A stretch of 56,378 bases of DNA from a virus (lineage: Duplodnaviria; Caudoviricetes): positions 1-56,378 of the IMG/VR virus record IMGVR_UViG_3300037961_003088; one strand, 5' to 3'. This document shows positions 769 through 48,455 of this stretch, one piece after another. Position 1 is the first letter of the stretch, and each line of letters opens with the position of its first letter. The notes beneath the pieces are model-generated. The model ran no database searches. It saw only the letters and a list, made by a program, of their open reading frames with translations, and was not told the DNA's origin. A program made the translations under genes and the position numbers.

Positions 769-1137
769 TTGATAGATCATTATGAAAAAATATTACAAGA
801 AAGAAAAGAAGAATGGTGGGAATGGCACAAAAATAATCCTAAGGTTTGGGAAAAGTTTAGAGATTATACTTTAGACGTTATAAATAGCGGAAGAAACAAT
901 TATTCTCAATGGGCAATAGTAAATCGTATAAGATGGAATGAAGAGATTGAAACACAAGGTGGGGAGTTTAAGATAAACAATAACTATATATCTTTCTATG
1001 CTCGTATGTTTCATGCCAAATATCCTGAGCATGAGGGTTTTTTTAGACTTAAACCTTTTAAAGAAGAAAAAGAAATAGATAGGTTGAAAAGTCTTGGATA
1101 TGATGAAGAAACAAGGTTGTTTTTACATAAAGGTTAA
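769..1137 (+). CDS. Conserved phage hypothetical protein
   Basis: GGAGG RBS before TTG; NPKVW...YSQWAIVNRIRW...FKINNNYISFYAR pattern recalled from other phage proteins. Confidence 0.7.
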   Translation: MIDHYEKILQERKEEWWEWHKNNPKVWEKFRDYTLDVINSGRNNYSQWAIVNRIRWNEEIETQGGEFKINNNYISFYARMFHAKYPEHEGFFRLKPFKEEKEIDRLKSLGYDEETRLFLHKG

Positions 1138-4100: not shown

Positions 4101-7100
4101 TGGAGGATCTAGTGAACCAAGATTACTATACCTTTTAGCTTTCTTATACGTACCAAATGCACCAACTAACTGTTGTAAACCTAAAGTTCCTCCAGCATAT
4201 TTAGATAGTGTTAAAGCTTCACTTAAAATTAAAAAATTAGAAAAAACATTTTTAGTATCGACAGGGATATTTAAGAGTTGTGAAATTTCTTTTACAAATT
4301 CACTTAAAAAATTCTCTTCAGAAATTGGAAGAGGTTGTTCTAATTTTATTTCTTTTAATAAACCCTGAAAACCTCTATTAGTTAGACCAACAGCTAAAAA
4401 TTCTTGAACATTACTGCCATTAAAACCTTTTGATAAAACAAATCTTCTGTCATGAATTTGTACAGATTCTTCAAGTAAATCTTCATTAGATAATGTTCTT
4501 TTTCTTTCTTTTAACAGCATTTCATAATGACCACGATTATCCATATCGACTTTTCTTCTTGGACTAACAGTAATAAGTTGATTAAATGTTCCGCTTATAC
4601 CATACATAGTTTCAAGACTTTGCTGTTCTACTTTTCTAGCTAAATCTAAATCAGGTTTTTGTTTTCTAAATGCTGTAATTCCTGGCTGTACAAAAGGTTT
4701 ACTTCTAGATTTTTTTTCCATTCTAATGTCTCCATTTGGAAGAACATCAGAAACTTTTTCTTGTGATACTAATAAAGCTAAAGGTGTTAGATCAACATTT
4801 ATCGCAATAGGTATTTCTTTACCTGTATAATTAAATTTATCACGTTTAAAACCCTCTTTTAAAATTTTATCTATATACTTATCAGTAAATTCTTCAGGAT
4901 TAAATCTTTGTGCAACTGCTAATATTTGTTCTACTTCTTGACGTCTTTTATAAAATAATCTGCCACTTTCAAGTAATCTTGCTTTTACTCTGCTATTAAA
5001 TTTTCCAGTTTTATAAAAAATAACTGCTTGATCTTGCAATTTTTCAAAAACTTCCAGTTTAACATTTTCATTTTGTATCATATTAAAAGCAAACATTAAT
5101 TCTGAAATTTCTTGTTTTGTTTTAACTTCTAAAGTTTGTAAAGCATAATGAGAAATAATTTCAACTGGACTAACATTTTCTAAAATAGCTGCTAATGTAT
5201 TTAGAGAAGGTAGAACATTTTCATTAGCATTATTTAATAAATAACTTAATTCTCCTTTTTTTATAGATTTTTGTATTTTTAATAATTGATCGGTAGATTT
5301 TTTTAAATTTTGTTCTGCAGCTATTTTTTGTCTTAGATCATCCTTAACTCCTTTAAATCTTTCAAGAACACCAGTAAAATATTGTGTTTTTTTACCTATA
5401 TCATTTGGATTTATATTTTCTCCAGTGCTTTGTTCAGTAACATTTATAAAATCAACAAGAACTTTGTTACGACCACCTTTTATATTTAATTTTTCAAGAA
5501 ATTTTAAATTAACTCTTCCTCTATCTGCAGTAAAATACTTTATAAAATCTTTAGCTACTTTTGGTTTTAAACCCTCACTTTTTTCATTAGTTTCAAATAT
5601 ATTATTATTGCCAACTTTTTTTATAATGCCTGTCTTTAGCATATATTCATGAATCTCTTTCATAGAAGATATAGCTGCATTCATACTAGAAGTTGAACCC
5701 TGTGTAGCTAAATGCACTAATTCATGTAAAATTATTTCATAATTTACAGCGTCAGATTTAAATGCAAGATCATTAATATATAATCTAAAACCTGAATAAG
5801 CTTCTGTTAATTCTTCAAATCTAGAAGCAAATTTTTGATTACTTTTTGTTCTTTGTATTTCTGCTGCTAAAGAATTTTTTGAAGCAGGACCTGCTACAAA
5901 ACCAAGTGAACGCCCTTTTCCATAGTGTTGGTTATCGAATAATGGTAAAACATCATTGTTATCTTTTATAACTGTAAAAGATGTTTTTACACCTATTTTG
6001 TTAAATTGTTCTAATCTATCAACTATTTTTTTAGCTATGATTCTATAGTCTTTACTAGGAGCATTCTTAAATAAAATTTGAGCTACTTCTAAAGGAGTTT
6101 TATTAACTATATTATCCATTAAATATTTATAGTCTTGATCTTTTTGCTTATCAGTTAATTTTAAAAGATTATATATTCCACCTTTTAAACGAGGTTTTAT
6201 TTCCTCTAATGTCATATCAGGAGTAATTTCCGTAACCTGACCTATAGGCGAAACTTGCCCCCTATTAACTCTCCTACTGGTTTCTTGCTCTATTTCTGTT
6301 TTTAATAGAGGTTCATCTTCTACAGGTTTTTCTTCTGTTGTTTCTAAAGTTTCATCTATTTCTAAAATTGGTCTTAATTCATCATCTAGCCTTAATCTAT
6401 CTAACTCCTTAGTTGTTCTTATTTCACCTCTTTCTCTAGCACCTAATTTTCCTTCCTCTATAATAGAAAAAATTTCTGAAGCTCTTTTCATACCTGAACG
6501 TTTTACAGCTTTGCCTAGTAAATCAAAAAATTGTTCTACTTTGCCAAAAATACTTTCTGCTTTTGGAGCTACATCTGCAGGTGAAAACCTAGATTTATAT
6601 AAATCTGCTATGGCACTTTCTACATACATTTCTTCTAAAGCGTCTTTACCTGCTCCATAAGCTTGCATTTCTGCAGCTTTATTAGAATTTTTACGCAAAG
6701 AACGTTGATAATAACTAATACCTGCATTATTTTTATCAAAAGATAATGGAACTTTTGCTCTTCTTATGTAATTTCTAAAAAATTGATATTCTTTTTCAGT
6801 AAATAAATCTTTCTCTCTAAGAGCCTCTATAACATTACCATCTACTATTTTATTAATTCTTTGTTGTATTTCTAAATCACTAGCTGTGCCATCAGGATTT
6901 ATAGCATTTAAAGATACAAAAATTATATCTGTATTTTTATCGTATTCTCCTTTTATATTTTTAGCCTGTTCAGGATCACGAACTATAGTGCCATCTTCTT
7001 TTTCTACTAAAGTTCTTGTAGACAATAATTCATCAGATATAACAATGCCAGTTTCTCTCAAACCAACCACGTCTAACATTTTTCTTACTTCTTTAGCAAA

Positions 7101-9245
7101 TTTATTAAGTCTGCCTTTTTTTATAGCCTCGTCAAAATTGATCATTTTTGGCACAATTTCTGCAGGAGGTAAGAACTTACTTTGTTTTAGTTGCTCTTTT
7201 TCTACTAAATCTTTTATTGCCTCTTCAGAAAGTTCATTTTCTTGTCTTAAACGATTGCCAAACTCTTCAGGAGTTTCTTTAAAACCTTCAGCACGTCTAG
7301 CTATGTTGTAAGCAAAATCTTTAACCAGTCTATATTTATTACCATTAACTTTTTCTACACGACCACTATTTAATAAATCCTCTAAAAATATTTTTTGATC
7401 TAAAGCGTTTTGCCTAATAGATTCTGGTCCTATTTTTTGTAAATCTTTTAAAGTAAATAAATTATCATTTAAATTAGACACAAAATTAGCGACATCTACT
7501 GCATTATGTTTTCTAGGGGAAAAATCAGGAAAAGGTACTTTTATATTAAAGTTAGGGAGGGAATGTAAGCGTGCTATGAATAATTGTTTTGCTCCTACAG
7601 GTGCTTTTGAAATTTCTGCATATCCTGTAGTTGCTTTTGCAAAATAACGCACAGCTGGATCTTTTAGACTTTTTATATCTATATTTTTACTTGCTATTAA
7701 ATCTTTTATATAAGCAACACTAGTATTTATTTTATTTTTATCATCTCTTATAGAACCTAAACCATTTTCTTCAGATTTTTTAAATACTGTATCTGCTAAA
7801 TTTTTTTGTAATAAATTTAATTCTTTTTTATTTAATAATTTACCTTGATTTGCAAGCTTTACAGCTTCTTCAAAGCTAAATGTTTTATTTTTATTTTTCT
7901 CAAAATTTGGACTTTTTAATAAATTTTGTCTATCTTTTTCTGACAATCTTTGATTAAAATTAAATAAAGATTTAAGAGAAACTCTAGTAGAATTATTATC
8001 TAATAATAAGCTACCAACTTCTGTAGCTGTAGAACTTTTTTGTAAACCTAATATATATAAAACATTTTCTATTTCAGCTTTTACATCATTTACAGCAAAA
8101 GCGTCTAATTTTTTTTGTTTTTCAACTCTAGCTTCTGCTTCAGTAGCTATATCTTGTAATAAAAATTCATTAGTATCTTTATTGTATAAATCAAAAGTGC
8201 CTTTAGTATTATTTAAAATAACTAAATTAGGTTCTGGTTGCCTTTCTGCTGGTAAAGGAATATCTGGTGGTATTTGATCAGGCTGTTCTAATATATCTGA
8301 AACAATTCCTTGTTCTGTAGCTTTTTCAAATTTTTTAGATGATAAAATTGTTTCTCTATTATTTCTTGCTCTTTGTTCTCTATCTAAAAATTCTGCATTA
8401 GCTATTCCTCTTCTGCCAGCAAAACTATTTAAAACAAAATCTGTTGTAGCACCAACTATACCACCTATAGTAAATTCATCTAAAAGACTATCACCTATTG
8501 GTAGTTGGTCACTATATAAACCTCTAGCTATTAAATCTTGTGCTACAGAAGCAAAAACCTCTTGTCCACCCTCAACACCACCACTAAGTAATGCTCTTTT
8601 TATTTTTTCTTTTAAAACATTGTTTTTTAAAGCAGTTTTTGAAGTTTTAGATAAAATATATGAAACTGGTAAAATTTCTGATAATCCTACTGCACCACCG
8701 CCTATTTCAGCAAATGTTTCTGCAAAAGGTCCTACATCCTCTCCTAATTGTCTAGCTGCTTCTATTCTGTCTGCTTGTTGTGAAACACCTGCAGGAACAG
8801 CTATAGCTGCAGGTAAACCATACTGCCCTACAATAGGACTTACTAACTTTCTTTGTGCTAAAGCTCTACCTACTAAACCTGCACCGAAAAAAGGAGCAAA
8901 TGATCCAAATCCTTCAGAAAGTTTTGTTGTAAAAGTATCTTCATAGCCTTTAGCTGCTGCAAAAGGACTATCTTCTCTTAATCTTCTACTAGCCTCACGC
9001 AAGGAAGTTGTAGTTTGACCATCATTACCAACATCTAATAAAGATGACAAACCTAAAGGCACATCTATAGCAATACCTAAAGCACCTCTAGCTAAACCTT
9101 TAGGTATTTCTGCTATTTGTCCTAAAACACTAGTTTGATCAACATCAACACCATGTATAGATTTTACTAGCTGAACAAATCTCTCTCTTTCTTTTGGATC
9201 TGTAGGCACATTATAAGTTTTGCCTGCTACTGTAAATTGTTCCAT
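1134..9245 (-). CDS. Giant internal virion/ejection protein, polyvalent type (zincin HExxH domain, C-terminal LPD38-like domain)
   Basis: 2703 aa, last late gene; IILHELVH motif; C-terminal PFLNARIQG...DDNWVIP...IPIPFEVG...KAIPER typical of LPD38. Confidence 0.8.
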   Translation of the reverse strand: MEQFTVAGKTYNVPTDPKERERFVQLVKSIHGVDVDQTSVLGQIAEIPKGLARGALGIAIDVPLGLSSLLDVGNDGQTTTSLREASRRLREDSPFAAAKGYEDTFTTKLSEGFGSFAPFFGAGLVGRALAQRKLVSPIVGQYGLPAAIAVPAGVSQQADRIEAARQLGEDVGPFAETFAEIGGGAVGLSEILPVSYILSKTSKTALKNNVLKEKIKRALLSGGVEGGQEVFASVAQDLIARGLYSDQLPIGDSLLDEFTIGGIVGATTDFVLNSFAGRRGIANAEFLDREQRARNNRETILSSKKFEKATEQGIVSDILEQPDQIPPDIPLPAERQPEPNLVILNNTKGTFDLYNKDTNEFLLQDIATEAEARVEKQKKLDAFAVNDVKAEIENVLYILGLQKSSTATEVGSLLLDNNSTRVSLKSLFNFNQRLSEKDRQNLLKSPNFEKNKNKTFSFEEAVKLANQGKLLNKKELNLLQKNLADTVFKKSEENGLGSIRDDKNKINTSVAYIKDLIASKNIDIKSLKDPAVRYFAKATTGYAEISKAPVGAKQLFIARLHSLPNFNIKVPFPDFSPRKHNAVDVANFVSNLNDNLFTLKDLQKIGPESIRQNALDQKIFLEDLLNSGRVEKVNGNKYRLVKDFAYNIARRAEGFKETPEEFGNRLRQENELSEEAIKDLVEKEQLKQSKFLPPAEIVPKMINFDEAIKKGRLNKFAKEVRKMLDVVGLRETGIVISDELLSTRTLVEKEDGTIVRDPEQAKNIKGEYDKNTDIIFVSLNAINPDGTASDLEIQQRINKIVDGNVIEALREKDLFTEKEYQFFRNYIRRAKVPLSFDKNNAGISYYQRSLRKNSNKAAEMQAYGAGKDALEEMYVESAIADLYKSRFSPADVAPKAESIFGKVEQFFDLLGKAVKRSGMKRASEIFSIIEEGKLGARERGEIRTTKELDRLRLDDELRPILEIDETLETTEEKPVEDEPLLKTEIEQETSRRVNRGQVSPIGQVTEITPDMTLEEIKPRLKGGIYNLLKLTDKQKDQDYKYLMDNIVNKTPLEVAQILFKNAPSKDYRIIAKKIVDRLEQFNKIGVKTSFTVIKDNNDVLPLFDNQHYGKGRSLGFVAGPASKNSLAAEIQRTKSNQKFASRFEELTEAYSGFRLYINDLAFKSDAVNYEIILHELVHLATQGSTSSMNAAISSMKEIHEYMLKTGIIKKVGNNNIFETNEKSEGLKPKVAKDFIKYFTADRGRVNLKFLEKLNIKGGRNKVLVDFINVTEQSTGENINPNDIGKKTQYFTGVLERFKGVKDDLRQKIAAEQNLKKSTDQLLKIQKSIKKGELSYLLNNANENVLPSLNTLAAILENVSPVEIISHYALQTLEVKTKQEISELMFAFNMIQNENVKLEVFEKLQDQAVIFYKTGKFNSRVKARLLESGRLFYKRRQEVEQILAVAQRFNPEEFTDKYIDKILKEGFKRDKFNYTGKEIPIAINVDLTPLALLVSQEKVSDVLPNGDIRMEKKSRSKPFVQPGITAFRKQKPDLDLARKVEQQSLETMYGISGTFNQLITVSPRRKVDMDNRGHYEMLLKERKRTLSNEDLLEESVQIHDRRFVLSKGFNGSNVQEFLAVGLTNRGFQGLLKEIKLEQPLPISEENFLSEFVKEISQLLNIPVDTKNVFSNFLILSEALTLSKYAGGTLGLQQLVGAFGTYKKAKRYSNLGSLDPPSSQNVEIERNLRKAEYDVKSTPLGQIPTFNLNASDIAINAAINFNNSAVPEQDIPLPKNEAVVPPEYAQQVKDLGYEKPVKVYGERLIDYIENPIASIKQQFSTIRTSIIDKYDVIHKDILRQKTENEEIRQLENTADSSAMANIRLGERARGIYQGLLTNGYPTALIDGQEGATRTQALEIEAKYNPFVAPEKADVINETTGEVLREAGKTYGGFMQITAPLYADPTIDREAIFALYRKLKRIDSFDKQGKKITTPRTEKMKETMRSIEKNYPSVVEVSNNYDRWNNKLIDFAVQKEVLSPETAKLWKDHSSYYPFYRKMVDGDLAGPNIAVGVLPNNPLGIKIKGSEDPIDTNPIEAISRNSLAILTAALKNDGIKKLVRNYRLETKGKDVDSAGHPNTIAFFENVPNEAGVIENKKVFYQLEDKLVHDALRGLGGVSTDGVVGILAKPASFLRDTVTRDPGFVVVNILRDTLSSAVTSGATLGGDGFVPIIDSFKNMMKDVSELEQFGIVGGYDFSNDEGSIKEFIDRTRRQQGLSLDNGLSAKNAFFKVWDGLGALTTKSDAVTRKAVFRAVYNHVKKNGGTEAQAQSEAAYQALEIINFGRRGLSPTFRIITSAIPFLNARIQGLDVLFRAFTGQYSSIEKLEAGETMADVQNRIIRTAFLRGGTLMLITLIYYALVSDTEEYKSMRREERDDNWVIPLPGDIPSVKIPIPFEVGAMFKAIPERLLDASPLGRQIEGDPTESITRQAGTSLNIPFFQPGAGIQVLKPIAEAMANRNSFTNTEIVPYYQLKLENVLQTRKTTNKAVEEFAKTFGLSPIVTEHVLRGYGGTLGGYVLNFADIVARGVTGENLIPTNLNNLPLLRRFFRDPNISGGGLQQQFYELRNEVDTAVASMNRLREQKRFDELRAYRSNVKGLNDVRGRVRALERYLDAWRDRRDRLYDRDDISASVRNDLLIELEAERDRRLAIVPELRKRAKAPIFSGL

Positions 9246-12094: not shown

Positions 12095-12559
12095 CTATAT
12101 CTCCTTTTTCATAATAAATCCTACATCTTTGTAGTCTTTAGATTTTAAATAATCTTTATATCTATTTCTTTTTAAAGCTGTAGAAGATCCAATACAAGTT
12201 TCTACAGCACCTTTTGATTTAGCCCATTCTTCAAATTTAGGTATAATAATATCTAAATACATATGTGAATCTTTTTTATACTCAGGTAAAAATATAACTA
12301 CTAAATCCTGTGCTAATTTTTCATTTGAAAAATAATATTCACTAATATTTCCCACAAAAGCACCTATAACTCTACTATCTATATCTACAACATATGCAAA
12401 AACATCTGAATCATCTTGTAAAGCATAATTAGATAATGAAAAAAACTTTTCATTATTCCAGCCTGATTTAGAAAAAGTGCTATTTTCCTGAAATGTTTTA
12501 GCTATTTGCATACATTGATGTACATCTTGTCTGTGATAAGGTCTTACAACTGCTTTCAT
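12095..12559 (-). CDS. GNAT-fold acyltransferase-like protein
   Basis: VRPY start, VIGAFVG strand, FLPEYK, FEEWAKSKGA, terminal YxxVG pattern; GNATs commonly precede ejection genes in podoviruses. Confidence 0.7.
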   Translation of the reverse strand: MKAVVRPYHRQDVHQCMQIAKTFQENSTFSKSGWNNEKFFSLSNYALQDDSDVFAYVVDIDSRVIGAFVGNISEYYFSNEKLAQDLVVIFLPEYKKDSHMYLDIIIPKFEEWAKSKGAVETCIGSSTALKRNRYKDYLKSKDYKDVGFIMKKEI

Positions 12560-18987: not shown

Positions 18988-19347
18988 TTAATTAGCTAGT
19001 GGATTTTTATCTAAGTCCTTTAGCTTTTCTTTTAACTCTTGTATATCTTCTTTAGAATCAGAAAGCTGTACTTTCATTGCAGCAAGCTCGCTTTCTATTT
19101 CAGATACATTAGGTATCTCTATACCATCTATTTCTTTTTGTAAAAATTCTACACTTGTTTCTATAGCTACAAATCTTTCTTCTATAGCTTGTACCTCATT
19201 TTCATTATCACTAATACCACCAATCTTAGATTCTAAATTTTCTAGTCTATTTATGTAAGTTGCACCTGTATAACCAAAACCAGCTAATGTTCCGACTATT
19301 GATACTAGAGCTATTAGTTGTGTTGTTTTATTTTGAAACCAATCCAT
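18988..19347 (-). CDS. Membrane-anchored coiled-coil protein
   Basis: N-terminal hydrophobic helix LIALVSIVGTLAGFGY followed by heptad repeats. Confidence 0.7.
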   Translation of the reverse strand: MDWFQNKTTQLIALVSIVGTLAGFGYTGATYINRLENLESKIGGISDNENEVQAIEERFVAIETSVEFLQKEIDGIEIPNVSEIESELAAMKVQLSDSKEDIQELKEKLKDLDKNPLAN

Positions 19348-21650
19348 TATTCCTCCTGTAAGTTTGGTTGTTCTTGTATCAAGATATTCATAGTATTTAT
19401 ATTACTACCTGCTAAACCATAAAAGGCATTTATATTATCGTTCATAACTATGTCACTGTAAATTTCTTTAGCCTCATACCATGTATCTTGTTTAGGCAAC
19501 TCTAAAACTTTATATCTATCAAAACCAGGTACAAAACCTAAATATGCAACTAAAGTTGTTTGATCTGCATATTCTCCTGTTTCTTGTTGTTGCTGTTGTA
19601 TTTCTTCTTGTTGATTCTTAATATTATTTTCTATTATCTGATTAGCTATTTCATCAGCCTCACTTGCAGATACAACTCCTGATGTAGCAGAACTAATATC
19701 ACCTTGTAAATTATTTATCTGCACTTCAGCCATAACCATTTGTCCACCATCTGCAGTAGGTAAAGGTATAAAGCTTGTAGTAATACTATCACCTACTTGT
19801 GATCCTGTACCTGACATATCTGCAGAATTTTGTGACATAGATAATAAATTATTATTTTGCATAGAGGCAGAAGCTATTTGATCACTTATACTAGGAGAAC
19901 TACTTGTAGAAATAGAACCACTAGATATGTTTTTATTATTGCCAGTGTAAACATTTGAATTAGAACTAGAACTACCTGTGCCATATCCTCCTGAATTAGA
20001 ACTTTGCCCACCATAATTAACACTTTGACTTGCTGTTGCTATAGAGCTATTTACTATATTTAATTTCATATCTCTTTTGCTATCACTATCAGCAACTAAC
20101 TCTTCTTCATGCAGTTCTAATATTTCTTCTTCAGAAACTTCTTCTTCAAGTTCTGCGACTTCTTCTTGTTCTTCTCTAATATCTTCTAAGACTTCTTCTA
20201 CTTCTTGCTCTATAATAACTTCTTCTCTTTGTTCTCTAACAAGTCTATCATCAGCTTGTGCTACTTCTTCGTAAGGTTCTTCTTGTCTGCCTCTTTCATT
20301 TTCAAACCATTCATCTAATTCTTCTATGCTATCAAACTCAACAAAAGTTGTAGGCTCTTGAAAATCATCTATTAATATAGTTTCTAAAACAACTAATTCA
20401 GATAGAAGTAAATCTGAACCTAAAGGAGGTAATACTTGTGAAACTTCATGATCTGGAACTTCAAAAGTATTGAAATTTATATAAGGTTGTTGATGATCTT
20501 GTTGTGTATCTATTGGCTCTACATCCATTCTAAACATAGAATCTGAATGATTATGAAAAACATCTTCATTATGTATATCAAAAACTAATACTTCATCAAA
20601 TAAACTATTTTCAAAAACATTATTTTGTCTAATTATTGTTACATCTAAAAAAGGATCATCAAGCAAAAAATCTCCTTGAAAAGAATTGTGACTTTGTGAA
20701 AACATATTATGTTCATCACTATTACCATAGTCTACATTCTCCTCTCTAAAATATGCTACAGAATCTTGTTGTCTATATCCTGCACAAAAAGGTGCATACT
20801 GAGGATCATCATCACATTGTTGCTCATCAAAAGCCTCGTCATAGTTAGGACAGCTTGTACTGTAGAGTTGTGATAAATTACATTGTTGATTTAAAAAAGC
20901 GTCTGCATAACCAGTGCAACTAGAATCATTTAAAGGATTGCTACAATCTATACTATGGTCTGAACCATCACTATAAAGTGAGCCACCATTCTCTAAAGTT
21001 GTATTAAAAGATGTATTATTCCAATTAGTATTTACACAACTGCTTGAATTAGTAGATCCTGTATTACATTCATCATGAAATAAATACGTGTATATTTTAC
21101 TAGAATCTGGTCCTTGTTCACCTATTAAAACATCATGATTAATTATATTAAGTGCACCATATCTATATTCAAATGTATGATTTGACCAAAGTATTATTTC
21201 AAAACTATTGTCTGTACCACTTCTATTGTACTCACGCAAATCATACCAACCAAAAATCATCTTTTCATTATCGCCATATGATTTAATTCTTGAATTATTA
21301 TCTCTAATCAAATCTGTCCAAAATGGATAAAGAGTATTTTTATATCTAGGCAAAGGATCAGGAGTAAAATCTCCACAATAATCTGCATAAGCAGTAGATG
21401 TTAAACCTAAATGCAAACACCCATTTGTAGCCATTCTAGCTGAATTAAAAGTATTGCCATAAAAATTAAAATCAAAAGAAAAATCTATAGCTGGCGAAAT
21501 GCCATCATCTACAATTTCATAAGCAAGCTCACCCTCAAAAGAATTAGCATTTGTTTGTAAATGATATAAAGGCTGATTAGCTTCGTATATATACTGAGAT
21601 TGTATTTTTAAACAGAATATAAATACTAGCCATAAAATTCGTCTAAGCAT
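19347..21650 (-). CDS. Secreted protein with NIDO-like domain, Cys-rich repeats, acidic and Ser-rich regions
   Basis: Signal peptide; DDGISPAIDFSFDFNFYG...ATNG...LYPFWTDL...SFEIIL NIDO-like pattern; QQC..LY...C..Y repeats. Confidence 0.7.
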   Translation of the reverse strand: MLRRILWLVFIFCLKIQSQYIYEANQPLYHLQTNANSFEGELAYEIVDDGISPAIDFSFDFNFYGNTFNSARMATNGCLHLGLTSTAYADYCGDFTPDPLPRYKNTLYPFWTDLIRDNNSRIKSYGDNEKMIFGWYDLREYNRSGTDNSFEIILWSNHTFEYRYGALNIINHDVLIGEQGPDSSKIYTYLFHDECNTGSTNSSSCVNTNWNNTSFNTTLENGGSLYSDGSDHSIDCSNPLNDSSCTGYADAFLNQQCNLSQLYSTSCPNYDEAFDEQQCDDDPQYAPFCAGYRQQDSVAYFREENVDYGNSDEHNMFSQSHNSFQGDFLLDDPFLDVTIIRQNNVFENSLFDEVLVFDIHNEDVFHNHSDSMFRMDVEPIDTQQDHQQPYINFNTFEVPDHEVSQVLPPLGSDLLLSELVVLETILIDDFQEPTTFVEFDSIEELDEWFENERGRQEEPYEEVAQADDRLVREQREEVIIEQEVEEVLEDIREEQEEVAELEEEVSEEEILELHEEELVADSDSKRDMKLNIVNSSIATASQSVNYGGQSSNSGGYGTGSSSSNSNVYTGNNKNISSGSISTSSSPSISDQIASASMQNNNLLSMSQNSADMSGTGSQVGDSITTSFIPLPTADGGQMVMAEVQINNLQGDISSATSGVVSASEADEIANQIIENNIKNQQEEIQQQQQETGEYADQTTLVAYLGFVPGFDRYKVLELPKQDTWYEAKEIYSDIVMNDNINAFYGLAGSNINTMNILIQEQPNLQEE

Positions 21651-22732
21651 TGTCTCCTACTTTTATATTTAGAAGCAAAAGGTTTATCACTTAAAGGTGA
21701 TGTAATTTTTTCACCCCAACTTCTTTTTCTCCAATTAGGATTTATTTGTTCCATACATTTTCGTAAAAAATCTTCTTCTGCTTGCAATCTATCAGGTCTT
21801 TCCCATGCGTTAGAAACCCACTCTGCTTTTGCCTCTTCTCCTATCTTGCCATTATAAGGACAAGGTGTTCCTGCTTTCCACATAGCTGAAAAAACTCTTT
21901 CATCTTGGCATAACAAAGCTACTGCTGCTACTTTCATGCCCATATCATAAACATACTTAGAAAGTTTCAATCTTTCACAGTTTTCATCTCTAATACTTTT
22001 ACCACCAGAAAAACCAAATATCTGCCCTTGATATGCTGCAGATAAACCTGTTGTGCAAAGATCCTGAGAATAACTCATTATGCTTGGTGCTATAGCAGAA
22101 GCTGGAGGTGCTTTTGTATTTATATTTTGTGTTATTACTTGTTCTGATTTACTTTCATTTATATTTCTATTTGTATTATTAGAAGTTGTATTATTCTCGT
22201 TTATATTTGTATTGTTAGTATTTACATTAGAATTTGATTCACTGTAATTATTATTAGTATTGGTATTATTTGAAGTTGAATTAGATTCATTATAATTACT
22301 ATTTGTATTGTTAGATGTAGTAGTGTTATTTACATTCTGATTTACAGTAGAATTAACAGTAGAATTTGATGTAGAAGTATTAACGTTAGTATTGGTATTA
22401 TTATTTGTACTAGTATTTACATTAGTATTATTAGCTGAAGAAGTAGATGTATTGACATTTGTATTAGTATTATTAGCAGTACTAGTATTTGTATTTACAT
22501 TAGTATTGCTAGCTGTTGATGTTGAAGTATTAACATTTGTATTTGAATTAGTATTTGTATTTGTATTTGTGTTGGTATTTGTATTTGTATTTGTAGTCGT
22601 TGTCGTATTAGTTGTATTTAATGCCTCACAATACTGACTACCAACAGTACAAGTTCCTGTTTGTTCTTGTGCTAATAATTCATTACCACAATACAAAAAT
22701 ATAAAAAATATTATTAATCTACTTATCTTCAC
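21626..22732 (-). CDS. Secreted Thr/Asn-repeat protein with Cys-rich C-terminal domain
   Basis: GTG start at 22732 gives a signal peptide; ~155 aa of NTNxNT repeats; PPASAIAPS...DLC...DENCERLKL...LLCQD...AGTPCP domain. Confidence 0.75.
   Translation of the reverse strand: MKISRLIIFFIFLYCGNELLAQEQTGTCTVGSQYCEALNTTNTTTTTNTNTNTNTNTNTNTNSNTNVNTSTSTASNTNVNTNTSTANNTNTNVNTSTSSANNTNVNTSTNNNTNTNVNTSTSNSTVNSTVNQNVNNTTTSNNTNSNYNESNSTSNNTNTNNNYSESNSNVNTNNTNINENNTTSNNTNRNINESKSEQVITQNINTKAPPASAIAPSIMSYSQDLCTTGLSAAYQGQIFGFSGGKSIRDENCERLKLSKYVYDMGMKVAAVALLCQDERVFSAMWKAGTPCPYNGKIGEEAKAEWVSNAWERPDRLQAEEDFLRKCMEQINPNWRKRSWGEKITSPLSDKPFASKYKSRRQCLDEFYG
22150..22620 (-). repeat. Coding Thr-Asn alternating repeat
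   Basis: Runs of gtattt/gtatta hexamers on the + strand; NTNVNTSTS units. Confidence 0.9.
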
Positions 22733-23102
22733 CTTTAAATCCTTTTGAAGAGTTAGATGTGCCAGCATATAAACCAAACCATGCTGCACCAGCTCCAACT
22801 ATTATTGATATTAAACCTGATTGTTCAAAACTTGGCTCTTCTAAAGCCATAAACCACATTGTTGAATAATATAGTAAAAATATATATACACTTAAAAAAG
22901 CTCTAGGGAATATACGCCATGAATCTACAGCTCTCGCTAGATGAATCCATTTTTGGTGAGGATTAACATTTTTAGTATCTTCTAGCTCTCTTATTTTATC
23001 TTTTAGAGCACCTATTTCCTCTATCATAGCCATAAACTTTTTGAGGTCCATCTCGACCTCATTTCTGTCCATATCACCTCTAAATCTACTATCTTGATCC
23101 AT
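22719..23102 (-). CDS. Two-TM membrane protein, holin candidate
   Basis: Coiled coil followed by two hydrophobic helices (RIFPRAFL..., LISIIVGAGAAWFGLY). Confidence 0.6.
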   Translation of the reverse strand: MDQDSRFRGDMDRNEVEMDLKKFMAMIEEIGALKDKIRELEDTKNVNPHQKWIHLARAVDSWRIFPRAFLSVYIFLLYYSTMWFMALEEPSFEQSGLISIIVGAGAAWFGLYAGTSNSSKGFKGEDK

Positions 23103-23279: not shown

Positions 23280-23307
23280 AATTCCTCCTGTAATTTTTTG
23301 ATTTTAT

Positions 23308-23727
23308 TTAATCTATAGGAATGTATATTTCCTTATCTATTAAAATTTGTCTATTTGCTAAATGTTGTGAGGCAATTTCATCTTTACTTTGTCCTTTATA
23401 TGCAACTGCATGATGTTTATCAATCATTAAAAGATTAATATTTTTTCCATCACAATATATTTCGCCAAGTACTCTACCAAATTTACCTTTACCATCTACA
23501 CTAGTTTTTATAACGTGATCATCAGATGAAGCTAAACAATAAGATAAAAAGTCTTTTGCAAGTTTACCTCTAGCTTTTTCATCTAAATCTCTAGTTCTAG
23601 ATTCTGGAGTATCAATACCAAATAAGCGTACTCTACATTTATGTAGAATAGAAAAACCTAAATCTATAACTACATCTATAGTATCGCCATCAACAACTCT
23701 ATCTAATTTAAACTTATATTCATACAT
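23308..23727 (-). CDS. Thermonuclease (SNase-like) family nuclease
   Basis: VVDGDTIDV...RVRLFGIDTPE...GKFGRVLG. Confidence 0.9.
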   Translation of the reverse strand: MYEYKFKLDRVVDGDTIDVVIDLGFSILHKCRVRLFGIDTPESRTRDLDEKARGKLAKDFLSYCLASSDDHVIKTSVDGKGKFGRVLGEIYCDGKNINLLMIDKHHAVAYKGQSKDEIASQHLANRQILIDKEIYIPID

Positions 23728-23969
23728 TATCTTCTTTTACCTTTATGCAAACCATGTCTAGCGTGTTGTTTGCCTTTTCTAGTTGCCTCTCTCTTTTTTC
23801 TATTAGCTGCAGCTAATTTTCTTCTGCCTTTTGGAGTAGACTTTAATCTTTCTATTTGTTTTCTAGGAGCATAAACTTCACCTGTTTCAGATGACTTTTT
23901 ACCACTAGCTGTAGTCCAATCTTGACCTGTCCATGTTTTTAAACTTTTTTGTGTTTTTTTAAGTGCCAT
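23727..23969 (-). CDS. Small Lys/Arg-rich protein (DUF5872-like)
   Basis: QKSLKTWTGQDW.T.SGKKSSETGE.Y.P pattern; very basic; GGAG RBS. Confidence 0.7.
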   Translation of the reverse strand: MALKKTQKSLKTWTGQDWTTASGKKSSETGEVYAPRKQIERLKSTPKGRRKLAAANRKKREATRKGKQHARHGLHKGKRR

Positions 23970-23970
23970 A

Positions 23971-24570
23971 TTATTCTCCAAAAATAACTATGTAAGAATC
24001 TGTTTTTCTAGGTTTACTAATATAATGCCTTTCTACTATGTGTGGCACATCACATATTTTAAGCAGTTCCCAAAAACTTTCTCTACCAGGATCACACATT
24101 AATAATTGTTTACCATCTTTGACAACTCTTTTAATAAACTTTTTCCACTGTTTAATATGTTTTTTCCAAAAACAAACATCACAAGCTATAAAATAATCGT
24201 AGTCTATTTCAAAATCTTTTTTAAAAAAATCATCACATAAAAATAAAGTACTTACATTATTTATATCTGCTACACACTTAAAATATGGTTCTACGTTAGG
24301 ATCTTTATCAACTCCTACTACATTTGCTCCATTTAAAGCTAAATAAGAACTTAAAACACCCCAACCGCAACCTAAATCTAAAACAAGATTATTGTCATGA
24401 AATCTTATATTTAAATCTTTAATTGCGTCTATTAAAACTAAACTAGAGTTCCATACTTTATTGCCATGATCTGTATGATCATTACAAGCATTTTTTAATT
24501 TTTTTATATTTGGATGATTAGATTTTGGTATTTCTAAATCATCAATGAATATACTATTTGTAACCGCCAC
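23971..24570 (-). CDS. Class I SAM-dependent methyltransferase, Methyltransf_16 (protein-lysine MTase)-like
   Basis: GNKVWNSSLVL, VLDLGCGWG motif I, IACDVCF motif, DPGR. Confidence 0.8.
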   Translation of the reverse strand: MAVTNSIFIDDLEIPKSNHPNIKKLKNACNDHTDHGNKVWNSSLVLIDAIKDLNIRFHDNNLVLDLGCGWGVLSSYLALNGANVVGVDKDPNVEPYFKCVADINNVSTLFLCDDFFKKDFEIDYDYFIACDVCFWKKHIKQWKKFIKRVVKDGKQLLMCDPGRESFWELLKICDVPHIVERHYISKPRKTDSYIVIFGE

Positions 24571-24850
24571 CTGCAGCCTTGTATTGTTTTGCTAACATCT
24601 GTGCTTTTCTTGCAGACCATTGACCAGGATTACCACCTTTACCGCCTGCTTTAATTTTATTAAATAATCTTTTTCTCATACCAGGTTTTGTGTAATTACC
24701 AGCTTCATTAACTCTGCTTTTGCTTTTTTTAGTTTTACCACCTTTTTTAAAATTTAAAGATTCTAAACTTTTTGCTTGATTAGCATGAGCCTTGCTAGCC
24801 TTTTTAAGCTTGCCTACAACTCTTGATATAACTTTTTTTGCTCTACTCAT
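24554..24850 (-). CDS. Small Lys/Arg-rich protein (DUF5872-like)
   Basis: NYTKPGMRKRLF..IKAGGKGGNPGQWSARKAQMLAKQYKAAGGGY. Confidence 0.75.
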   Translation of the reverse strand: MSRAKKVISRVVGKLKKASKAHANQAKSLESLNFKKGGKTKKSKSRVNEAGNYTKPGMRKRLFNKIKAGGKGGNPGQWSARKAQMLAKQYKAAGGGYK

Positions 24851-25029
24851 GATAAATACCTACTTACTACTAATGCTCCTACAATAAAAGGATATACTCC
24901 CCACAACATAAGTTCTAGTCTATCAAACCTTTTAGAACCATCTTCTAGACGCTTTTCTATATTTTCATAACGAATAGCACATTCTTTTTCATGTGAAATA
25001 ATTTTTTCCATAGAACTAACTTTTTTCAT
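24847..25029 (-). CDS. Small coiled-coil protein with C-terminal TM helix
   Basis: HEKECAIRYENIEKRL...LWGVYPFIVGALVV. Confidence 0.65.
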   Translation of the reverse strand: MKKVSSMEKIISHEKECAIRYENIEKRLEDGSKRFDRLELMLWGVYPFIVGALVVSRYLS

Positions 25030-25219
25030 TTTTATTTTTTTCAGATAATTCTTTTGAACTTTCTGGAACATCTATACCATTTGACCAATTCTTTAATTTT
25101 ATAACTACCTCTTCTCTAATTTGTGCCAACAAAGCTAGCTCTGTACCTTCCCAAGCTCCTCTTCTTACAGAAACATCTATTAGCTGTAAAACATTTGCAT
25201 AAAATTTTTGTTCATCCAT
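25016..25219 (-). CDS. Hypothetical protein downstream of tail fibre
   Basis: IDVSVRRGAWEGTEL motif; coupled ORF. Confidence 0.6.
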   Translation of the reverse strand: MDEQKFYANVLQLIDVSVRRGAWEGTELALLAQIREEVVIKLKNWSNGIDVPESSKELSEKNKNEKS

Positions 25220-25222
25220 ATC

Positions 25223-26869
25223 TTAACTACCTTCTAATGTAGCTATTCTAGCCTCTAGCTCTTGTATAGTTTTTACTAAGTTTGGCACTAGTACTGAATA
25301 ATCTAACATCCACTTTTCTGTATCAGAACCCTCTGTGACACCTCTTGCATACTCTCCTATATCATCAAAAGCTTGCTTATAAGATTGTGCTCCAAAACCA
25401 CATCCATTAGTTACACCCTCAGATGGTCTTGTATATTTTATTGGCTCTAGTTTAGAAATTAAATTCCAACCATCAGCAGGTCCTGTAATTGTTTTGTATC
25501 TTTCATCAGATTCTACTGCTAATGAAATAGAATCTCCTGAAAGGTCATAATCAAGTTTAGCTAAACTAGAATTAGTATTTTTTCTGTAGAATCTTATAAA
25601 TCTATAAAAAGAAGCGTCACCTGTATCTGAATCTAAGGCTAAAACTGCGTCATCATTACTACCTGATTTTCTAATATTACAAGCTTCATTTTCAAACATA
25701 CCACCACTAAATCCACCACCGACAAGCAAACCTGTACTAATTATAGACGCTGTTTCTGAACCACCTGTATCAAATCTGATTTTATCTTCGTCAGAGGATT
25801 CCTCACATTGAACTTTAGTGTCACCATCAGCGTCAGCTATTGATGTTGGTGTGCCAGCAGATACAGTGCCAAAAGATAAAGCTCCACTACCATTAGTTTT
25901 TAATACTTGATCAGCACTACCATCTGATGTTGGGAAAGTATAAGCTCCATTAAATTGCACAACTTGGCTTTCATTAACACCAATAGCTACATTAGAACCT
26001 ACAGTGCTACCATTACCTATTAAAAGATCATCTGCCGAATCATCTAAACCAATATAAAAATCCTGAGCATTACCATCAAAAACTAATTTTGTATCTTCTT
26101 CACCTGCGTCACCTATAGTTAAAGTTGGTGTTGAGCCATTTATTACTACAGGACTTGCTATTGAAATACTAGATCCATCTGCTGATAGACTATCTAAAGC
26201 AATATCGCCAACGTTAGTAATATTTGCGTCATTAAAAGATGTAGCTCCAAAAGTATTTGAAGCAGCTGTTGATGTAATACCAGCTGCTGCTGTTATACCT
26301 CCGCCATCAGCTATTGTGATAGCGTTATCTCCATCTGTAAAACCTATATTTGCTGTTTGCACTTCACCACTTACTAATAAGTCGCCACCTACAGAAGCGT
26401 CATCTGTAACTGTCAAATCATCACTAACTTTTAAATCTACTGTTGATAAACTTGCAAAAGCGTCATTTACTGCTGCACCTGAGCCTGCACCATCTAGATA
26501 AACTACCTTAACATCTCCTGGACCAATAGTTACTGTAGATCCAGAACCTTGTTTTATTATTATGTTTTGACTACCTGACGTACCATTCTCTATAAAATGA
26601 ACTCTCTTTAATGTATTTGGTCCTATTGTTATAGTACAAGCACTGTCTAATGTGCCTGTATATTTAATGTACATAGCTCTAGCTTCATCTGCTGAACCAT
26701 CAGCTACAGTAGAAGCATGAGTATCTGCATTTGTTGTAATAGCCTCAGTACCAAAACCTAAACCCTCTCCAACTAATTCTAAATTTGTATTAGTAGAAGT
26801 ACCCCATGTTCCAGCTTCATCACCTGTAGCTATTTCTTTTAATCTTAAATTGTTTACATACGTTGCCAT
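25223..26869 (-). CDS. Tail fibre/spike with C-terminal intramolecular chaperone (Peptidase S74-like)
   Basis: N-terminal GTWGTSTNTNL anchor; C-terminal SDERYK...GFGAQ...DYSVLVPNLVKTIQELEARIATLE. Confidence 0.85.
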   Translation of the reverse strand: MATYVNNLRLKEIATGDEAGTWGTSTNTNLELVGEGLGFGTEAITTNADTHASTVADGSADEARAMYIKYTGTLDSACTITIGPNTLKRVHFIENGTSGSQNIIIKQGSGSTVTIGPGDVKVVYLDGAGSGAAVNDAFASLSTVDLKVSDDLTVTDDASVGGDLLVSGEVQTANIGFTDGDNAITIADGGGITAAAGITSTAASNTFGATSFNDANITNVGDIALDSLSADGSSISIASPVVINGSTPTLTIGDAGEEDTKLVFDGNAQDFYIGLDDSADDLLIGNGSTVGSNVAIGVNESQVVQFNGAYTFPTSDGSADQVLKTNGSGALSFGTVSAGTPTSIADADGDTKVQCEESSDEDKIRFDTGGSETASIISTGLLVGGGFSGGMFENEACNIRKSGSNDDAVLALDSDTGDASFYRFIRFYRKNTNSSLAKLDYDLSGDSISLAVESDERYKTITGPADGWNLISKLEPIKYTRPSEGVTNGCGFGAQSYKQAFDDIGEYARGVTEGSDTEKWMLDYSVLVPNLVKTIQELEARIATLEGS

Positions 26870-29027: not shown

Positions 29028-29720
29028 TTAATAAACAGTTCCACCTGGAACAAATTTTACTGCAGCTCTTTCTCTATCTGCGTCAGAAACTTCATCCCAT
29101 AGTTCTAAATATCTACCTCTGATCATATTAACTTTATTTAAAGCTTCAGGCTCTTTACAAGCTATGTTATAAGCTAAAGCATATGTTAAACATGGTAAAT
29201 ATCTAGCTGGTACATCTGCATTGTTAGAAGCAACTGAACCAGCGTCTTCTATTCTTTTTATATAATCGTAAACTAAAGTATATGTTTGCGAATCATCTGG
29301 TGTTGCCCATAAAACTATATTTATACCACTAGTTCCTTTATCTGCAAAAAATTGTGTAGGCTTTGATCTTAAAAGTTTTTTTGCTTGATGATTGTATTCT
29401 GTTCTAGATATTCTTGTAAGTTGTTGATCAAACTGTTTATCAGTATCTCCGCTATCAGTTCTTATAAAAGCGTCTACTATTTCTAGTGCTGATGTTTCTG
29501 CTGCATAGCTACTAGTACCTGCTGTAAGAGTTTGTGTTGCTTGTTCTATCTTCCAAAGATTTAGACCTTTATTTTGCCACTCTAAAAATATTAAATTTAA
29601 AGCTCTTCTTGCTGTTCTGTAGTCATATCCTGATCTCATGGTAAGACCACATAACTCATATGCTTCTTCCATAATATCAGATAAATCTAAATTAAATGTT
29701 GTTGTACCACTTGTTGCCAT
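29028..29720 (-). CDS. Head-tail connector protein (P22 gp4-like)
   Basis: MATSGT..F.LD..DI.EEAYE.CG...ARRALNL...W.N.GLNLW. Confidence 0.65.
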   Translation of the reverse strand: MATSGTTTFNLDLSDIMEEAYELCGLTMRSGYDYRTARRALNLIFLEWQNKGLNLWKIEQATQTLTAGTSSYAAETSALEIVDAFIRTDSGDTDKQFDQQLTRISRTEYNHQAKKLLRSKPTQFFADKGTSGINIVLWATPDDSQTYTLVYDYIKRIEDAGSVASNNADVPARYLPCLTYALAYNIACKEPEALNKVNMIRGRYLELWDEVSDADRERAAVKFVPGGTVY

Positions 29721-30010
29721 TATTTACCTTCTTTTCTTCTAATAGCTTCTTTACCTTTTTTAGCTATTCTTGCTTGTTCATTTTTACCTGCTACTTTAGC
29801 TCTTTGTTCTAAAACAGTAAGTATTTGTATTTTACGTGCAAAAGGTTTTTTTATTCTTTTTACTTTTGCTACAGTTGCTCTAGCGTCTGCTGGTGTAGCA
29901 TATTTAATACTAACTGTATCTTTTGGATTTTCATCAGTATATAGTCTTCTATCACTACCTTTTGGTTTTTTTCCTGTTCCTACTTTAGGATCTCTTCTTT
30001 TTCTTTTCAC
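29720..30010 (-). CDS. Small basic protein
   Basis: K/R-rich; [13 protein letters not shown] motif. Confidence 0.65.
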
Positions 30011-30128
30011 TTTTACCAGCTTTTTGTAGTGCTATAGCTACCGCTTGTTTTTGCGGTTTACCCTCTTTTCTAAGCTTTGATATATTATCGCTTATTACTT
30101 CTCTTGATCTTCCTTTTCTTAAAGGCAT
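29985..30128 (-). CDS. Small basic protein (47 aa, not in ORF track)
   Basis: [56 protein letters not shown] motif is common in phage proteins. Confidence 0.75.
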
Positions 30129-30192
30129 TTTTTTTCCTCTTAGCAGGTGCTTTACTGGTCATTATTCTAGTATTGGCTCTTGTAATTACCAT
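30085..30192 (-). CDS. Small basic peptide (35 aa, not in ORF track)
   Basis: [38 protein letters not shown] overlaps the upstream gene end and the ORF fills the gap. Confidence 0.5.
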
Positions 30193-30476
30193 TTTACTTT
30201 ATGTGACCAGTATCTAGCACTTAATTTGCTCGGATTAGGATCTTGTGCATTATGTCTAGCATAGTAGGATTTCCTACGTGCTTTATCCTTTTTTGTTTTA
30301 GGATTTTTACCTGCACCTTTTACACCTTGTTGTCCAAAACGAATTGTCTTAACTTTATCGCCATCTTTTGCGACAACAACATGAGACTTAGTTGGATGAT
30401 TAGGTGTTCTTTTAGGTTTGTTATAGCCTGAAACTCCTGCTTTAGCCAACCTAGAATCCTTTGAGGCTCTAGACAT
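30186..30476 (-). CDS. Small basic protein
   Basis: KTIRFGQQG...RRKSYYARH...SARYWS..VKW. Confidence 0.75.
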   Translation of the reverse strand: MSRASKDSRLAKAGVSGYNKPKRTPNHPTKSHVVVAKDGDKVKTIRFGQQGVKGAGKNPKTKKDKARRKSYYARHNAQDPNPSKLSARYWSHKVKW

Positions 30477-30479
30477 ATT

Positions 30480-30710
30480 TTACTTAGTCTTGCCACCACC
30501 AAACATTTTTTTAACGTAATCTTGAAACATTATTGGTCCGCCATTATCTTTTCTAGCTTTTGACGCACCACCAGCTCTAAGGTTCTTTTTAGGCATTTTG
30601 CCGCCTCTAAGATTTACTTTTTTCTTTTTAGCTTTAGCTTTAGCGGCTTTACCACCTTTCATACCTGGAGCTTTTTTCTTTTTCATTTTATCTTTCATCA
30701 TGCCTGCCAT
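30480..30710 (-). CDS. Very Lys-rich small protein with repeated xxGG motifs
   Basis: MKGG, LRGG, RAGG, DNGG, FGGG; AGGAGG RBS. Confidence 0.7.
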   Translation of the reverse strand: MAGMMKDKMKKKKAPGMKGGKAAKAKAKKKKVNLRGGKMPKKNLRAGGASKARKDNGGPIMFQDYVKKMFGGGKTK

Positions 30711-47345: not shown

Positions 47346-47512
47346 CATGCCTTAGACCAAATAAACTCGTTAGAAGCGAAATTAGGAGGTCGAAATTTTA
47401 CAAATTACCAAAATTTAGACATTTATTGATCTAAAAGTATCTTTTGTTGTTTAAAAAACAAATTTTACTTTTTCGCTGGTTCGTTTAGTGATCGTAAAAA
47501 GGGGGGGGGTAA

Positions 47513-47538
47513 GTTTCTCCCACCCTAGAGGGAGAAAC
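47513..47538. other. 9-bp hairpin next to a G9 run
   Basis: GTTTCTCCC-ACCCTAGA-GGGAGAAAC. Confidence 0.65.
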
Positions 47539-47665
47539 GTAAAATATTTTTGATTGTCTTTTAAAAACATAGACTAGTTAATATTTTTAGATGGGGGCGA
47601 AAAAAACACGCAAAACAGTGCAAAAACATATTTTACTTATTAGATATTTTGATAGTCTTAATTAC

Positions 47666-48190
47666 GTCAATACAGAACCTCCATTGTTCTTATGACTTTG
47701 GTAGAGAGTTTGACAAGACTATTTATTACTCATATTAGTGTTATTGTCAGGTAGTAGTTTTTCTTTAACACTATAGAAGTCTGCTTCATTATAAATCCTA
47801 GATTTAATTCGGGGATATGGAGTGACGATAAATCTTGTCATACTCTCCTATCAATCCCCTAAATTATTAGGAACAATTTAGAGGTCTGTTTGGCACTTTA
47901 GTCTTCCTAACAGTATTGATACTGACTGTCAGACGACTTAAAAAGTGCAAGTATCTAGTCTGATTTTTCTCATTTAGCGAGGGGTTTGAACAGACGATAA
48001 ACAACAAAGCCAATATGTGCAGTCCGATTTCCCACACGTGTGGAGGTTTAGATAGACTTAAAACTAAAAGCCACAATTTGCGAGGCAACTGTTTTGCTAG
48101 TTTCAAAGTCTTAAACAAATAAAAAACTAGCTTCGGACTAGTCTAGTCTATATATATCGAGTGACTGTTGATCGACAACTCTCTCAGTTT
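47666..48190 (+). ncRNA. Candidate large structured ncRNA (~520 nt)
   Basis: Extended -10 TGATAGTCT at 47650-47658; consecutive helices including a ~35-bp irregular duplex (47698-47735/47815-47854) and repeated covarying hairpins; G-U pairs favour the + strand. Confidence 0.65.
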
Positions 48191-48231
48191 TGTAAAAGTT
48201 TGATTTTATTTTGTATTTATGTATGATATTT

Positions 48232-48330: not shown

Positions 48331-48455
48331 TGCAATTACTTTCATAATGAACGTCTATGTGGTTAAAAAAAACGCAGACCAGTAAATATTTTTCTAGCAG
48401 GAGATCCCATGTGTTCGCTGTGAGCTTTTCTGATTCTAAACATAATTAATAGATC

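Follow-up and report, generated by a model that had tools for sequence, protein, structure and literature searches.

The stretch of DNA analysed here, an IMG/VR virus record of 56,378 bases estimated to be 96% complete and referred to below as the window, is the genome of an HMO-2011-type marine podophage; it has conserved small genes in common with Puniceispirillum phage HMO-2011, pelagiphages, RCA roseophages and Methylophilales phages. Between two small genes for strongly basic proteins, A and B, it carries a gene for a 199-aa class I methyltransferase (MTase), which is a cargo inserted there at a fixed position. MTase is probably a functional protein methyltransferase of Family-16-like type, with lysine as the presumed acceptor residue. 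Furthermore, in sister phages the same A/B slot, or another polybasic array, contains a gene for a minimal SET-domain protein, which is an observation new here. The phage's own polybasic proteins are, tentatively, the substrates that we propose for MTase. The genes concerned are the following open reading frames (ORFs), for which isoelectric points (pI) are given.

24554..24850, minus strand: gene A, 98 aa, 22 Lys, pI 11.3
23971..24570, minus strand: MTase, 199 aa, GTG start, seven-beta-strand, putative protein-lysine methyltransferase, Family-16 (METTL21)-like
23727..23981, minus strand: gene B as the mechanical ORF from a TTG, 84 aa, 16 Lys and 10 Arg, pI 11.5
23727..23969, minus strand: gene B from its preferred start, ATG 23969, 80 aa
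24554..24570, minus strand: 17-nt overlap of A and MTase, with GTG 24570 within the codons of A's conserved C-terminal GGGYK and A's TAG at 24554-24556

The original prediction, made from the sequence of the window, had described a 199-aa MTase overlapping or abutting two very basic small genes, and the three same-strand ORFs with flanks of pI 11.3 and 11.5 agree with it. Judging from coordinates, a similar overlap or abutment of A and MTase occurs in related loci. On the other side, the TAA of MTase occupies 23971-23973 and ATG 23969 lies one base beyond, preceded 4 nt upstream by a GGAG (23976-23979) that falls in the last codons of MTase. Given that the alignments of most B homologues begin at the Met of this ATG and that the GGAG stands upstream of it, B is more likely an 80-aa protein whose gene abuts MTase rather than overlapping it. 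No convincing promoter or terminator was found at the intergenic junctions of MTase, A and B. According to PHROGs assignments the three genes belong to a long minus-strand late operon, which leads from terminase, portal, head, adaptors and a tail-fibre-like gene through A, MTase and B to SNase, spanins, endolysin and ejection proteins; the flanking genes had rightly been called late, and MTase stands in the late operon and not in the replication arm. Contigs of 151-152 nt with 0-1 differences, all within 23923-24284 and some spanning the MTase/B junction, were found in 3 metatranscriptome runs of 3 studies, and are a weak hint that MTase is transcribed, with DNA carry-over being possible.

The four class I motifs that had been quoted were all found in the translation of MTase, namely G36-NKVWNSSLVL46, L64-DLGCGWG71, A129-CDVCF134 and D160-PGR163. 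In Pfam, the Methyltransf_16 model (PF10294) matches MTase with 24.6 bits, above its cut-off of 21, and spans residues 31-160 (profile positions 13-157 of 174), which is the longest coverage among the Pfam matches; it also matches 11 of 23 members of the MTase family at E<=0.001, the best at 5.2e-10. Higher scores than with Methyltransf_16 were obtained with Methyltransf_25, Methyltransf_11 and TehB, and when the family profile was run against the PDB a TehB homologue came first (2e-9), ahead of PrmA and METTL21C near 5e-7 (5.4e-7 for METTL21C), although the TehB match is limited to the S-adenosylmethionine (SAM)-binding half, residues 38-146. The sequence searches are hence ambiguous, with generic SAM-binding models in the lead, and structure is the better arbiter of the class of MTase.

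An AlphaFold2 model built from a 23-sequence alignment reached a predicted local distance difference test score (pLDDT) of 90.2. Foldseek placed METTL21D, METTL21C, FAM86A and METTL21A at the top ranks for this model, with template modelling scores of 0.61-0.73. With VIA-align, ranks 1 to 9 are all Family-16 lysine methyltransferases, i.e. METTL21B, FAM86A, METTL21A, VCP-KMT (METTL21D, several entries) and METTL21C, at Z 17.2-19.4 and with 176-184 of the 199 residues aligned, while all other structures stay at or below 15.7, the next neighbour being RsmC at that value. The Methyltransf_16/METTL21-type signature of the original prediction was thus recovered. Whether the best matches would be small-molecule or RNA methyltransferases has a divided answer: by structure the Family-16 enzymes come first, by sequence profile against the PDB it is the TehB homologue.

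According to excerpts of Hamey et al. 2016 (PMC5324768), all Family-16 enzymes carry a [D/E]XX[Y/F] motif after beta-strand 4 as well as an invariant active-site Trp. The first is present in MTase as D131-V-C-F134; none of the 23 aligned sequences deviates at D131 or F134, and together with W40, G67/G69/G71, D88 and D90 these two residues are also invariant in all 35 distinct viral homologues. W40, in the KVW of the first motif, falls inside the PF10294 match; for its equivalence to the family Trp, MTase residues 20-62 were compared with PDB sequences, which gave chance beta-lactamase matches only. The gene is under purifying selection, with ratios of nonsynonymous to synonymous substitution rates (dN/dS) of 0.02-0.2 in most close MTase gene pairs. 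MTase as a DNA N6-adenine or N4-cytosine methyltransferase was rejected, since motif IV, (D/N/S)PP(Y/F/W), is absent: there is no PP dipeptide in the 199 residues, hence no DPPY-type motif, and no DNA methyltransferase family occurs among the Pfam or NCBIfam matches of MTase, as had been anticipated.

The insertion of MTase between A and B is seen from phages with and without it. None of 50,697 cultured phage records has the MTase gene, and 11 cultured phages have both A and B, every time on one strand with A upstream. The distances between them, measured from the end of A to the first aligned residue of B, are as follows.

Gap of -1 to 2 nt: 6 phages (HTVC034P, HTVC035P, Lederberg, CRP-13, CRP-345, CRP-603)
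Gap of 105-147 nt: 3 phages
Gap of 395 nt: HTVC033P, with two small basic genes inside
Gap of 1,759 nt: HMO-2011, with a 76-aa gene, a Rieske-type oxygenase gene and a 151-aa gene inside

In IMG/VR, 60 loci matched MTase, 54 of them at 47-99% identity and six partially at 27-33%, the latter being excluded from the synteny counts. B stands directly downstream of MTase in 54/54 loci, and A directly upstream in all 50 that have upstream sequence, the other 4 ending at a contig edge. Being fixed in every assessable locus, the A-MTase-B arrangement is not due to chance, and the position of the gene does not vary among relatives, as the synteny survey suggested with the original prediction was to establish. 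That MTase is an insertion, an idea first put forward from a likeness of the flanks to other proteins, finds its grounds elsewhere, in that cultured relatives without MTase have A next to B and that A- and B-type modules are fused in other proteins (see below).

The contents of the slot were then surveyed in the best 80 of 276 B-encoding IMG/VR loci, selected by likeness to the B of the window, so that the shares are not population frequencies.

MTase in the gap: 22/80 loci
C230, a 226-235-aa acidic protein, in the gap: 24/80
Short insertions (66-392 nt), for the most part additional basic or membrane ORFs: 16/80
No insert, A and B adjacent: 14/80
Gap not assessable, upstream sequence too short: 4/80

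A tree of the flanks (A domain plus B, 72 distinct rows, 136 columns) is weakly resolved and could be distorted by recombination within A or B. On this tree the MTase label needs 9 changes, of which at least 3 are forced by well-supported branches, and one MTase locus nests among loci with SET and C230 with 99% support in the Shimodaira-Hasegawa-like approximate likelihood ratio test (SH-aLRT). The tree thus indicates that the MTase and the SET+C230 cassettes have repeatedly taken each other's place. In the slot of HMO-2011, the gene annotated 'methanesulfonate monooxygenase' (minus strand, 47357-48439 of the record, 2858-3940 of the extracted locus L001) shows to Pfam only the catalytic domain of a Rieske oxygenase (Ring_hydroxyl_A, E 3e-6); some Rieske-type oxygenases act on N-methyl or trimethylammonium groups.

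The SET domain defines the other, unrelated class of protein-lysine methyltransferases. In two C230 loci, a SET-domain protein of 108-112 aa is encoded between A and C230, and the Pfam SET model matches both (L189:1325-1663, 41.8 bits, E 1.6e-10; L155:3954-4280, 32.8 bits, E 1e-7; cut-off 22.4) with the C-terminal half of the model. When IMG/VR was searched for the SET protein, 90 loci matched, and 80 of them (L221-L300) were analysed further. Proteins of this kind, 108-116 aa in the sister phages, are common in marine podophage contigs, and in 80/80 loci a polybasic module or C230 lies beside SET. Three layouts were distinguished, the remaining loci being too short for assignment.

bas101-type basic gene, SET, further polybasic genes, C230, adaptor: 45/80 loci
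A, SET, C230, (bas101), B, adaptor: 10/80 loci
A, SET, C230, B, SNase, whole or in part, as near the genes of the window: 5/80 loci

An adaptor homologue is present in 55/80 SET loci, and there SET lies within the polybasic array upstream of the adaptor gene. Among 60 distinct loci, the upstream neighbour of SET is polybasic in 55 of 59 that could be assessed and the downstream one in 42 of 56, with a median of 5 polybasic ORFs within 2 kb; these counts come from a mechanical ORF finder applied to AT-rich DNA and may be inflated. In three loci inspected in full, SET belongs to an uninterrupted series of eight to ten genes whose products have pI 10.3-12. Given that SET is found among polybasic genes in two neighbourhoods, one adaptor-proximal and one SNase-proximal, its association follows the polybasic genes and not a fixed site. 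Neither SET nor C230 was found in the window. Outside the podophage contigs, SET homologues with 40-45% identity, annotated as hypothetical, occur in the cyanomyophages P-SSM7 and P-RSM6, where they adjoin nrdAB and talC, and in pelagiphage Kolga.

C230 (e.g. L182:4321-5001), which usually accompanies SET, belongs to phrog_3704, whose members are labelled 'PurM' or 'ferredoxin'. These labels look wrong, since a confident model (pLDDT 87.9) shows two SH3/Tudor-like barrels, and neither name is backed by any match obtained. Pfam gave no match for C230, a profile search of the PDB gave nothing below E 0.025, and BLASTP showed no similarity to the HMO-2011 oxygenase. Foldseek returned nothing at E<=0.001, the weak top rows being mostly tandem Tudor/Agenet domains, and the VIA-align scores of residues 4-86 and 106-189 against chromo, BAH, PWWP and Tudor domains do not exceed Z 6.4, a level that common arrangements reach as well. 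C230 as a Tudor-like reader of methyl-lysine was for this weak likeness not used as support.

The flanking proteins themselves form families that are found well beyond the MTase loci. Gene A corresponds to phrog_17747 (E 1.3e-34); its C-terminal ~52 residues are a highly conserved module, with 36 invariant columns in 12 sequences, and the 3' part of the gene is 70-85% identical at the DNA level in cultured pelagiphages, roseophages, HMO-2011 and Methylophilales phages. Gene B corresponds to phrog_14910 (E 8.4e-17), with 20 invariant columns in 12 sequences. Pfam and NCBIfam family searches with A and B gave no match. The C-terminal module of A is also present in 497 longer proteins, and two of the 11 that were inspected (P0084 and P0111) combine a B-type N-terminus (E 5e-7), a DUF6321 domain (E 2.6e-18) and the A module (E 7e-31), to which one of them adds a peptidoglycan-binding domain; in P0033 a bas101 type is, judged by eye, joined to A. 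Since A- and B-type modules are fused in single long proteins, A and B appear as shuffled modules of a polybasic phage protein family. The original prediction had likened them to parts of DUF5872-type proteins. This was not borne out by the hidden Markov model of DUF5872 (PF19197): it matched neither protein at E<=10, and six-frame translations of the window and of 5 related phage records gave no match at E<=1. In a language-model search for look-alikes, clusters named DUF5872 came up for B (scores 0.96 and 0.91) and for A (0.87), which is a lead.

Besides A and B, the late operon of the window holds a cluster of four small polybasic ORFs (pI 10.9-11.2, 27-34% Lys+Arg), which are candidate further substrates of MTase.

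29720-30010, minus strand: polybasic small ORF
29985-30128, minus strand: polybasic small ORF
30186-30476, minus strand: polybasic small ORF
30480-30710, minus strand: polybasic small ORF

This cluster lies directly upstream of an adaptor gene (29028-29720, SU10_adaptor match, E 7.5e-11), and is equivalent to the adaptor-proximal array that holds the SET gene in sister phages. One of its ORFs shares 90% identity with the bas101 type that accompanies SET in those phages, and one has a weak likeness to DUF6321 (E 0.004).

MTase, as we picture it, would be an active SAM-dependent methyltransferase with the seven-beta-strand fold of the Family-16 (METTL21/FAM86) structural type, a swappable accessory cargo of HMO-2011-type marine podophages that may be translationally coupled to the conserved polybasic late genes A and B. 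It would mono- to tri-methylate the lysine side chains of lysine-rich small proteins from its own late operon, and as such substrates we infer A, B and the four-gene cluster at 29.7-30.7 kb. Lysine methylation would keep the positive charge while adding bulk and removing hydrogen-bond donors, and its inferred consequence would be either to tune the binding of the polybasic proteins to DNA or other polyanions, or to shield them from proteases. Our estimates for this and for the other possible substrates rest mainly on the fact that both unrelated classes of lysine methyltransferase occur among polybasic genes, in more than one genomic neighbourhood. They assign to the phage's own polybasic proteins a plausibility that falls a little short of even.

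Several findings weigh against these proteins being the substrate. In a scan of 185,579 species genomes, in which 80 loci were kept, at least three full-length cellular homologues of MTase were present among the 80 matches listed, with 30-33% identity, in Alloalcanivorax, in a metagenome-assembled genome of Alcanivorax and in an uncultured bacterium; they have ordinary chromosomal surroundings, such as an alpha/beta hydrolase and Lon on either side of the Alloalcanivorax gene, and none of the three genomes encodes A or B at E<=0.01. Viral and cellular MTases have in common the invariant or near-invariant N-terminal residues S17, H19, K24-L25-K26, H35 and K38, which points to a cellular substrate. 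The A/B slot accepts unrelated cargo as well, namely the Rieske-type oxygenase, C230 and small ORFs. P-SSM7, P-RSM6 and Kolga carry SET without having an A gene, and the family of C230 is found in 108 cultured phage records, mostly of cyanomyophages. No fusion of MTase with A or B was seen among 32 homologues (110-213 aa) or among proteins of more than 350 aa. Moreover, A and B lie side by side in cultured phages that have neither MTase nor SET, hence they work without methylation. Finally, the characterised Family-16 enzymes are described in the excerpts of PMC5324768 as having narrow specificity and folded substrates, which contrasts with lysine-rich, probably flexible proteins.

Much of this would be expected if an enzyme of the same class had a host protein as its target, such as a translation factor, a ribosomal protein, a chaperone or an envelope protein, and if A/B were merely a parking site for accessory genes. 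A bacterial METTL20 homologue, that of Agrobacterium, is reported in a work cited by PMC10238732 to methylate L7/L12 and ETF-beta. The homologues in bacteria devoid of A and B, with their conserved N-terminal region, the varied cargo of the slot from the HMO-2011 oxygenase to C230 and small ORFs, and the presence of C230 and SET in T4-like cyanophages remote from any A gene all fit such a target, as do the Family-16 substrates known so far, which the excerpts (PMC5324768) describe as folded cellular proteins. They likewise state that the variable N-termini of the Family-16 enzymes probably set specificity. However, SET tracks the polybasic genes in its two neighbourhoods, adaptor-proximal and SNase-proximal, and two of the few enzyme cargos are precisely the two known classes of lysine methyltransferase; a late-operon location would be odd for a take-over function unless the enzyme was packaged, and full-length cellular homologues are rare (at least three among the 80 matches listed). 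A host target is possible, though we regard it as rather unlikely and favour the phage's own polybasic proteins. The packaged enzyme is itself an alternative: MTase would enter the virion with the polybasic proteins, be injected and, like the chlorovirus vSET, act early in the next infection on the host nucleoid or on other host proteins. Its gene does lie in the late operon, with virion and ejection genes around it, and the occurrence of A- and B-type modules in long proteins with a peptidoglycan-binding domain suggests ejected proteins; on the other hand MTase displays no evident packaging signal. Injection is an improbable explanation.

Equally improbable is a non-protein substrate, either a small molecule, as for TehB-like or N-methyltransferase-like enzymes, or RNA, as for RsmC-like ones. 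It would account for the generic models outscoring Methyltransf_16, for the TehB homologue heading the PDB profile search before METTL21C, for RsmC as the next structural neighbour, and for the database label 'predicted nicotinamide N-methyase' that is attached to 5 of the 32 near-length homologues. Yet nine Family-16 protein methyltransferase entries lead the whole-length structural ranking with a gap of 1.5-3.7 Z units, the invariant D131xxF134 stands at the place of a Family-16 hallmark, as W40 may too, and the TehB match covers no more than the SAM-binding half. Methylation of the phage's own polybasic proteins could, in a wider form, mean that marine podophages run a chromatin-like system, in which polybasic arrays, possibly packaged or ejected with the DNA, would be marked by an interchangeable seven-beta-strand or SET writer, with C230 as a possible reader; this extension we hold to be unlikely.

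Compared with known systems, MTase has the fold of the Family-16 enzymes (METTL21A-D, FAM86A/eEF2-KMT, CaM-KMT) over its whole 199 residues at a root mean square deviation of about 3 A, a PF10294 score above the cut-off and the [D/E]XX[Y/F] motif; its conserved Trp, which precedes motif I, may correspond to theirs. It differs from them by a sequence identity of just 13-21%, by a much shorter N-terminal region of about 35 residues, and by being a viral protein, known from its sequence and a model, that is encoded between two polybasic genes, whereas the known members act on folded cellular proteins, e.g. chaperones and elongation factors. With the bacterial METTL20-/COG3897-type enzymes, some MTase homologues have in common the label 'predicted nicotinamide N-methylase'; Rhizobiales loci among the matches listed are weak partial relatives with 26-31% identity, and Alcanivorax-type proteins are full-length ones with 30-33%. 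Unlike the phage MTase, the cellular homologues come without A or B. Chlorovirus vSET is a minimal viral SET lysine methyltransferase whose target is the host histone H3. The 108-116-aa SET proteins of the sister phages would likewise be viral lysine methyltransferases, and their genes lie beside those of basic proteins; the SET fold is unrelated to that of MTase. Methylated lysine-rich proteins are also found in mycobacteria (HBHA/LBP) and in archaea (Sso7d/Cren7, methylated by aKMT), where protection against proteolysis or tuning of binding has been proposed; the idea of a methyltransferase acting on lysine-rich basic proteins is alike, the enzymes and the organisms differ.

Six metagenome studies of marine or estuary sites, dated 2014-2025 and contributing 14 DNA runs, contain DNA near-identical to positions 23300-25300 of the window (86-97% of sampled words), and HMO-2011-type phages and pelagiphages are described in published abstracts as dominant marine viruses. 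There is essentially no description of phage enzymes that methylate lysines of proteins: within the part of the literature that our search gave access to (phage SET, lysine methylation, HMO-2011 with methyltransferase), no paper on it was found, and the portions of the HMO-2011-type phage literature searched contained no mention of the MTase gene. Should the phage's own polybasic proteins be methylated, virion or genome-packaging biology would gain a new layer, and one would have a clean example of non-homologous enzyme replacement; with a host protein as the target, MTase would represent host manipulation of a new kind. The substrate question is testable cheaply with three small synthetic genes and SAM.

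A few minor observations were made in the same loci. In the late operon of the window, among the genes for ejection and internal proteins, a 154-aa acetyltransferase-like gene (12095-12559, minus strand, phrog_1249, E 1.2e-13) adjoins a 'DNA ejection protein' gene and lies upstream of a giant ORF of 2,703 aa (1134-9245); its product may be a second protein-modifying enzyme of this operon. Among the six partial matches to MTase (L058-L063), the locus L058, from a related podophage contig, encodes in the region L058:2818-5788 a different class I methyltransferase of 244 aa, flanked by four genes that resemble 2-oxoglutarate-Fe(II) oxygenases by eye, and this may be another modification cassette. 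Also on the minus strand of the window are a 390-aa protein with a long Asn/Thr-rich low-complexity stretch of NTNTN runs (21626-22798) and, adjoining it, a 767-aa protein with Cys-rich, acidic and Ser-rich segments (19347-21650); a family search with the two returned just one weak PHROG with no function. In the SET-adjacent arrays, the small proteins L241:4293-4562, L249:4298-4552 and L254:4193-4489 contain Lys/Gly-rich tandem repeats, about seven-fold.

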